NCBI RefSeq assembly: GCF_011045215.1
Contig: NZ_CP049201.1
DNA: 64,000 nucleotides
Direction: 5' to 3' (one strand)
DNA from: Escherichia coli
GTDB taxonomy: Bacteria; Pseudomonadota; Gammaproteobacteria; Enterobacterales; Enterobacteriaceae
A program made the position numbers and the translations under genes. The notes beneath the pieces are model-generated. The model was given only the letters and a program-made list of their open reading frames with translations, had not been told where the DNA came from and did no database searches. Positions 37,896 to 38,214 of this stretch are shown one piece after another. Each line of letters opens with the position of its first letter. Positions within the stretch are counted from its first letter, which is position 1.

Positions 37896-38214
37896 GGTAT
37901 ACACCGCAGCGCCTGATGCGACGCTGTTGTGTCTTATCAGGCCTACGAGTTCAGTGCTGTGTGTAGGTCGGATAAGGCGCTCACGCCGCATCCGACAATA
38001 ACAGCATTATTGCCTGATGCGACGCTGCCGCGTCTTATCAGGCCTACGAGTTCGGTGCTGTGTAGGTCGGATAAGGCGTTCATGCCGCATCCGACAATAA
38101 CAGCATTGCCTGATGCGACGCTTGCGCGTCTTATCAGGCCTACGAGTTCAGTGCTGTGTAGGTCGGATAAGGCGTTCACGCCGCATCCGGCAATAACAGC
38201 CTTGCCTGACGCAA
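37896..38214. repeat. Tandem REP/BIME array (at least three units)
   Basis: Three near-identical units of GCCTGATGCGACGCTG..CGTCTTATCAGGCCTACGAGTTC.GTGCTGTGTAGGTCGGATAAGGCG..CACGCCGCATCCGACAATAACAGC between holC and pepA. Confidence 0.85.

Follow-up and report, generated by a model that had tools for sequence, protein, structure and literature searches.

The spacer between pepA and holC in Escherichia coli is almost completely filled with repeated DNA, which raises the question of what this element is and what it may do for the genes around it. We analyzed the locus within a stretch of 64,000 nucleotides (the window), in which the open reading frame list places valS (34560-37415), holC (37415-37858) and pepA (38215-39726) all on the minus strand; the annotation of holC was taken from an identical segment of NZ_CP029180. 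The upstream gene pepA encodes aminopeptidase A and ends with a stop codon at 38215-38217, and the spacer to the holC start at 37858 covers 37859-38214 (356 bp). Tandem Repeats Finder detected an array at 37911-38209 (period 96, 3.1 copies, 91% matches) with a score of 483, which no other tandem array in the window came close to. A repeat search returned three in-register copies with a spacing of 99-101 and 96 bp together with internal palindromes. Reading by hand added a degenerate partial unit at each end, so that the full array spans 37889-38214 with a period of 96-101 bp and borders directly on the pepA stop at its right end. It takes up 326 of the 356 bp of the spacer and forms the 3' untranslated region of pepA. 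A first-pass annotation of this DNA had reported a three-unit REP/BIME tandem array between holC and pepA at 37896-38214. Both repeat programs confirm that the array is real, and the coordinates were essentially right. The units had also been called near-identical, which is slightly generous in wording, as the identities are 89.1% (unit 1 vs 2), 88.1% (1 vs 3) and 93.8% (2 vs 3).

Each unit is built from four parts: a 36-nt palindrome (GCCTGATGCGACGC-loop-GCGTCTTATCAGGCCTAC), which is a Z2-type REP, a linker of 14-16 nt (GAGTTCAGTGCTGT), an inverted 34-nt palindrome (GTAG-GTCGGATAAGGCG-loop-CGCCGCATCCGAC), which is a Y-type REP, and a second linker of 12-15 nt (AATAACAGCATT). The REP coordinates in the array were set by hand from the sequence and the tail motif; a fuzzy-consensus REP scan missed some of them. 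The series starts with a degenerate partial unit (37889-37910), consisting of the remnant of a Y REP 3' half and a tail linker, which is in register with 38086-38107 (82% over the 74-nt copy containing it). The first complete unit comprises Z2 REP no. 1 (37911-37946, minus strand, where its GTAG is located; assigned by palindrome and tail motif, with the Z2 consensus taken from PMC11208160), a head-to-head S linker of 16 nt (37947-37962), Y REP no. 1 (37963-37996, plus strand) and a tail-to-tail linker of 15 nt (37997-38011). It is followed by Z2 REP no. 2 (38012-38047, minus strand), an S linker of 14 nt (38048-38061), Y REP no. 2 (38062-38095, plus strand) and a tail-to-tail linker of 12 nt (38096-38107). 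The third unit consists of Z2 REP no. 3 (38108-38143, minus strand), an S linker of 14 nt (38144-38157), Y REP no. 3 (38158-38191, plus strand) and a tail-to-tail linker of 12 nt (38192-38203). The S linkers were delimited by sequence and unit alignment, the tail-to-tail linkers by unit alignment. At the right end, the truncated start of a fourth Z2 REP (38204-38214, 11 nt, GCCTGACGCAA), representing the fourth copy of the repeat family, abuts the pepA stop. All six REPs carry the GTAG/CTAC motif, which is located at the 5' end in each Y REP, and the stems are 83-86% complementary with a central two-base mismatch. The Y stems at the locus (37963-38191) read GTCGGAT...ATCCGAC instead of the usual GCCGGAT...ATCCGGC; the difference from the Y stems of REP325, the BIME-2 between yjdM and yjdN in K-12, is a compensatory paired change from C-G to T-A, for which Y REP no. 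3 (ATCCGGC) provides a T-G intermediate.

REPs of E. coli are imperfect palindromes of 30-40 nt with a conserved 5' GTAG and are grouped into the types Y, Z1 and Z2 (Ton-Hoang et al., PMC3333891). According to the same work, BIME-2 elements combine Z2 and Y with a short S linker and occur in tandem copies, whereas BIME-1 elements combine Z1 and Y with a long L linker, often including an IHF site, and occur as single copies. The array matches the first class at every point. It is composed of Z2 and Y REPs: Z2 REPs no. 2 and no. 3 each show one mismatch to the consensus GCCTGATGCGACGCTGGCGCGTCTTATCAGGCCTAC, Z2 REP no. 1 is more divergent from it in the loop, and all three Y REPs align with the Y units of REP325. 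The REPs alternate in inverted orientation, with CTAC and GTAG ends facing each other across 14-16 nt. The units are arranged in tandem (3.1 copies, tail linkers of 12-15 nt) and vary in number, with alleles of one to four units elsewhere, and the array is entirely extragenic, with the pepA stop (38215) on one side and the holC start (37858) on the other. It is thus an ordinary BIME-2 of three tandem Z2/Y units, which sharpens the correct first-pass identification as REP/BIME, and nothing about it lies outside the known range of this family.

The first-pass annotation had further proposed the array as a likely site for binding of DNA gyrase or IHF. For IHF, this failed: the array contains neither a Z1 REP nor an L linker, and the IHF consensus WATCAANNNNTTR, which matches 8 sites in the window, matches none in the spacer (37859-38214). 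The array shares with BIME-1 elements the inverted pairing of REP palindromes including a Y REP, and a reading as an IHF-binding BIME-1 (RIB/RIP element) can draw only on the known link between IHF and some BIMEs in general. However, a BIME-1 is a single-copy combination of Z1 and Y with a long, IHF-bearing L linker (PMC3333891), while the pepA-holC spacer contains Z2 and Y REPs with linkers of 12-16 nt in three tandem copies and no match to the IHF consensus. We therefore regard this reading as extremely unlikely.

Within the window, 14 matches to the REP tail motif CTTATCMGGCCTAC were counted, compared to 0.37 expected by chance, and 6 of the 14 are located in the array. The remaining eight belong to five clusters of one or two REPs, located between ytfQ and ytfR (4747-4831), between mpl and yjgA (10982-11066), between nrdD and nrdG (14238-14321), after mgtA (24204-24291) and after lptG (42280-42315). 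By this count, the earlier description of the array as the largest of the window, accompanied by five smaller clusters, was correct. A placement of REPs inside ytfR and yjgA was rejected as an artefact of using the coordinates of strain H9Ecoli, which are shifted by up to 165 bp. The cluster at 24204-24291 is a Y + Z1 pair and has the composition of a BIME-1, with a linker of just 25 nt and no match to the IHF consensus.

How widespread the three-unit form is became apparent from a survey of 5,426 complete E. coli genomes (RefSeq complete genomes, a non-random sample of the species), 5,425 of which yielded the locus. The spacer is of the BIME type in 3,994 genomes. In 1,405 of the 5,425 (26%), it is 132-133 bp long, lacks any REP and contains a palindromic element of BoxC-like type (on the holC-sense strand: CCCTCACCCTAACCCTCTCCCTAAGGGAGAGGG); its core is a dispersed repeat found at a median of 12 places per genome. 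Genomes with the BoxC-like spacer include O111:H8 and O104:H4. Only these two counts are exact, and the unit-number classes were derived from two samples, one of 40 and one of 60 genomes, taken at even intervals from the ranked genomes. The smaller sample contained 17 genomes with three units, nine with two, one with one and one with four, besides 11 BoxC-like spacers and one IS621 insertion; the corresponding numbers in the larger sample were 26, 13, 4 and 0, with 16 BoxC-like spacers and one IS621 insertion, and the IS621-bearing genome is one and the same in both. Based on these samples, about 43% of the genomes carry three units, about 22% two, about 5% one (largely K-12 laboratory strains) and about 1% four. 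Spacer lengths in this allelic series are 159, 257-260, 353-356 and 447-455 bp. Three units are present in O157:H7, and two units of a diverged type in CFT073 and NC101.

K-12 MG1655 shares with the window the locus, the flanks and the Z2 and Y REPs, and differs in having one unit in a 159-bp spacer instead of three units in 356 bp. This unit is catalogued as a BIME-2 (see below); the RefSeq feature tables of K-12 contain no repeat_region features, not even at REP325. The unit alignment showed that the K-12 unit combines a left portion from unit 1 with a right portion from unit 3, that strain B27 carries unit 1 and unit 3, and that unit 2 of THO-003 is a chimera of units 1 and 2. Position-specific unit signatures are common to several strains, and the patterns in K-12, B27 and THO-003 are what in-register unequal exchange or slippage would be expected to produce. 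The array in the window is a copy-number allele of the BIME-2 that K-12 carries as a single unit at this site, its copy number changing by in-register unequal recombination or replication slippage between 96-bp units, to which the REP-associated transposase TnpA-REP may contribute. In E. albertii, SCPM-O-B-9504 and SCPM-O-B-8794, all units of a lineage carry lineage-specific loop and linker variants, which indicates homogenisation or independent amplification. Across the alleles, stems are conserved, while loops and linkers are variable. The four-unit array of SCPM-O-B-9504, a genome labelled E. coli, consists of units almost identical to those of E. albertii NBRC 107761, suggesting mislabelling or introgression.

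One of the alleles was generated by a mobile element. The sequence ATCAGGCCTAC is the natural target of the IS621 bridge RNA, with CT as core (Durrant et al., PMC11208160), and exact copies of it are present three times in the array, once in each Z2 REP (37936-37946, 38037-38047 and 38133-38143). In strain CUVET20-416, the first Z2 REP of the locus is interrupted by IS621 exactly at the CT of ATCAGGC-CT-AC, which extends the spacer to 1,537 bp. This demonstrates that the locus is a natural target of this bridge-RNA recombinase. Together with the alleles of one to four units, the mosaic units and the BoxC-like replacement, the insertion bears out the first-pass expectation of rearrangement polymorphism among the genomes compared.

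To what extent the array is transcribed depends on the promoters around it. In a promoter scan of the region 37300-38700, neither strand of the spacer showed a sigma-70-like site, and an independent holC promoter in the spacer found no support. Because no promoter-like sequence separates pepA from holC, part of the holC-valS transcription is likely to pass through the array from the pepA promoter. The single sigma-70-like site in the scanned region (37513-37542, minus strand, TTGCCA-18-TAGACT with an upstream TG) is located inside holC, about 100 nt before valS, and represents a candidate internal promoter of valS. The sole non-repeat portion of the spacer is the holC leader of 30 nt (37859-37888, minus strand), which reads TATTTAAATCCACCACAAGAAGCCCCATTT followed by ATG and is common to the BIME and BoxC-like alleles. 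For a comparison beyond E. coli, HolC loci were collected from 80 Enterobacteriaceae species representatives, and 77 spacers were extracted. In most of them, a leader of about 30 nt (ATTTAAATCCACCACAAGAAGCCCCATAT) precedes the holC ATG, the exception being an ERIC-like element that abuts the start codon. This conservation across most genera exceeds the needs of a ribosome-binding site. The TTTAAAT in the leader could be a -10 element; a matching -35 element was not found.

The RNA of the transcribed (minus) strand of the array folds with -165 kcal/mol (z = -10.5 vs shuffled controls), and the opposite strand with -174 kcal/mol (z = -9.1 vs shuffled controls). The scan of 37300-38700 detected no U-tract and no intrinsic terminator in the array, and because of the missing U-tract the array does not act as one. 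Beyond the array, the RNA has a short C>G patch that hints weakly at a Rho entry site. The pepA stop and the start of the first complete hairpin are 23 nt apart. According to a finding ascribed to Liang, Rudd and Deutscher (Mol Cell 2015), REPs reportedly reduce translation when they are located within about 15 nt of a stop codon. With its distance of 23 nt, the array would fall outside this class.

Several known systems suggest what such hairpins may do. REPs are described as protectors of RNA 3' ends in the summary of PMC6061677, and the REP stabilisers or attenuators of operons such as malE-malF (Newbury et al. 1987 and Espeli et al. 2001, in so far as they are cited in PMC6061677) resemble the array in placing REP hairpins between co-oriented genes with no U-tract; the difference is that the role at pepA-holC is predicted by analogy. 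A 2026 preprint reported that REP325 raises the level of the upstream mRNA and cuts downstream transcription about tenfold, partly via Rho, and that tandem gene pairs containing REPs show upstream-biased expression genome-wide; the effects are context-dependent, and REPs do not lengthen mRNA half-lives genome-wide (bioRxiv 10.64898/2026.03.23.713779). By analogy, transcription from the pepA promoter would produce six stable hairpins that may block 3'-to-5' exonucleases and stabilise the pepA mRNA. The hairpins would also attenuate read-through into holC-valS, partly through Rho, and more units would cause a stronger attenuation. We consider this combination of pepA mRNA stabilisation and holC-valS attenuation, together with a gyrase site, the most likely role of the array. 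Taken as a whole, an ordinary BIME-2 that is a copy-number allele of the single K-12 unit, with such an RNA role predicted by analogy, explains the locus best, with a probability of roughly 90%. An argument against transferring the RNA role from REP325 is the orientation of the array relative to transcription, which is opposite to that of REP325. The Term-seq supplement of PMC7815308 contains no 3' end between pepA and holC, its sole site being upstream of pepA, and a literature search on the holC/pepA/valS operon returned nothing relevant. The array is missing from 26% of the E. coli genomes and varies between 1 and 4 units elsewhere, from which it follows that any function of it is dispensable or replaceable.

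REP325 is also the source of naRNA1-6, and its relation to the array brings up a different type of RNA. Both consist of tandem Y-linker-Z2 units between co-oriented genes, their stems are nearly identical, and adjacent units of the array reach the gathering score of the Rfam family naRNA4 (RF02564, 59.5 bits), with matches at 37966-38044 (plus strand, 76.1 bits) and 38065-38140 (plus strand, 82.2 bits). Each match covers a Y REP, the tail linker and the next Z2 REP. In contrast to the array with its three units of 96-101 bp, REP325 has six units of 100 bp, and the linkers differ. The two matches and the shared layout could mean that the array encodes naRNA4-like small RNAs which bind HU, bridge DNA cruciforms and condense the chromosome, as proposed in the original nucleoid-condensing model (PMC4550694). 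However, the matches in the array are antisense to pepA-holC transcription, whereas the six naRNA4 matches of REP325 in K-12 are located on the strand of yjdM-yjdN transcription, and the scan of 37300-38700 revealed no promoter-like site on the plus strand. The one-unit holC-pepA allele of K-12 has no naRNA4 match, and the 2026 preprint, with the same senior author as the original model, found that REP325/naRNA4 do not measurably compact the nucleoid (bioRxiv 10.64898/2026.03.23.713779). The gathering score is also exceeded by ordinary two-REP BIMEs of the window at 4750-4828 (plus strand, 70.2 bits) and 10986-11063 (plus strand, 85.9 bits), so that the model evidently recognises any adjacent pair of Y and Z2. 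We read the matches in the array as probable BIME-2 sequence similarity instead of small-RNA genes, and consider a nucleoid-condensing RNA at this locus very unlikely.

For gyrase, the second protein named in the first-pass annotation, published data exist at the very same locus. The K-12 element is included in Table DS3 of a Topo-Seq study as 'BIMEs2 <holC-<pepA' with 83 bp (Sutormin et al. 2019, PMC6379681). There, it contains two cleavage sites with ciprofloxacin, one with rifampicin plus ciprofloxacin, none with microcin B17 and two with oxolinic acid. This earlier work showed that gyrase cleaves within the one-unit K-12 allele in vivo, which substantiates this part of the claim, and the figures apply to the one-unit allele only. 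According to the same study, a subset of BIME-2 elements is enriched in cleavage sites, and the cleavage takes place mainly in Y REPs and persists when transcription is blocked. REP325 has no ciprofloxacin cleavage sites in the Topo-Seq data, unlike the K-12 holC-pepA unit (PMC6379681). A higher number of units does not necessarily bring more gyrase activity, because gyrase sites are confined to a subset of the BIME-2 elements and long ones such as REP325 are cleaved at few sites.

The spacers of the related species indicate how old the element may be. All five Escherichia representatives, including E. albertii, E. whittamii and E. coli SCPM-O-B-8794, carry a Z2/Y BIME-2 of one to four units at this position. 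Because of this, the BIME-2 probably predates E. coli, and the BoxC-like allele would then be a later replacement within the species. Multi-unit Z2/Y arrays are restricted to Escherichia among the 77 Enterobacteriaceae spacers; other genera contain one or two genus-specific REP-like palindromes, BoxC-like or ERIC-like elements. Hardly any of the 77 species has an empty spacer and nearly all possess some palindromic element, with the hairpin classifier used for other species undercounting REP-like elements. A permissive landing site and selection for some structured element would both be compatible with this pattern.

The first of these options corresponds to an array that is mainly selfish or neutral, consisting of non-autonomous REP pairs (REPINs) which are spread and amplified by the REP-associated transposase or by recombination and are tolerated in a permissive 3' spacer, with no host function of importance. 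Such an origin would account for the copy number of 1 to 4, for the absence of the array in 1,405 of 5,425 genomes with an unrelated BoxC-like repeat in its place, and for the REP-like, BoxC-like or ERIC-like elements of other genera at the same site; in addition, TnpA-REP cleaves and recombines BIMEs in vitro (PMC3333891). It accounts less well for the near absence of empty spacers among the 77 species, for stems that are conserved while loops and linkers vary, with the compensatory C-G to T-A change in the Y stems, and for gyrase cleavage of the K-12 unit in vivo (PMC6379681). We consider a mainly selfish array possible, although the balance is against it, and it is not exclusive with the BIME-2 copy-number allele favoured here. 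The second option can be taken further: the pepA-holC spacer might be selected for some stable palindromic element of any family, and the unit number (1-4) or the swap to the BoxC-like element might act as a heritable dial on pepA read-through into the replisome gene holC and valS, possibly also on gyrase recruitment next to them. This idea is speculative, and we rate it as unlikely.

The array also gives rise to open reading frames. A 100-aa ORF on the plus strand (37929-38231) translates the repeats into a twice-repeated peptide and overlaps pepA in antisense, and an ORF of 78 aa is present on the minus strand. The existence of these open frames is all that would speak for a real repeat protein. 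Pfam returned no match above the cut-off for either ORF, only sub-threshold noise; the exact 100-aa sequence is absent from a collection of 15 billion proteins, and no CDS is annotated at this position in any of the RefSeq genomes fetched. The length of the 100-aa ORF follows the number of units, and the 26% of genomes with a BoxC-like spacer instead of the array do not have this ORF. The first-pass annotation had already judged this ORF to be spurious, and indeed it is a by-product of translating the repeats; the chance that one of the two frames encodes a genuine protein is next to nil. For annotation, neither the 100-codon ORF nor the two naRNA4 Rfam matches should be called genes.

Earlier publications already cover the element class, its occurrence at this locus in K-12, the cleavage by gyrase and the differences in BIME-2 copy number among strains, and as a common copy-number allele of a catalogued BIME-2 the array carries little weight as a discovery. 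Among the points worth keeping is the BoxC-like replacement in a quarter of the genomes. The natural allelic series, with one to four units, the BoxC-like replacement and the IS621 insertion, is well suited for testing whether, as currently proposed, the expression ratio of neighbouring genes is tuned by REP arrays, and the array in the window offers three natural targets of the IS621 bridge recombinase.

Further observations concern the surroundings of the locus. Strain H9Ecoli matches the holC-pepA segment at 100% identity, whereas the rest of the compared part of the window (1-45267) shows only 97.5-98.7% identity to this strain, with several indels and shifts of up to 165 bp. Because of this difference in identity, the window would appear to come from a different strain, or the region may be a recombination mosaic. 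A tRNA-Leu gene is located at 45183-45264 (plus strand), and in H9Ecoli it is followed by remnants of an integrase and a JAB-domain pseudogene, which is typical of an island integration site. Within pepA, a strong Rfam match to Ysr276, an antisense small RNA of Yersinia, was detected in antisense orientation at 38974-39168 (plus strand, 184.7 bits), and K-12 has a Ysr276 match as well (180.8 bits).
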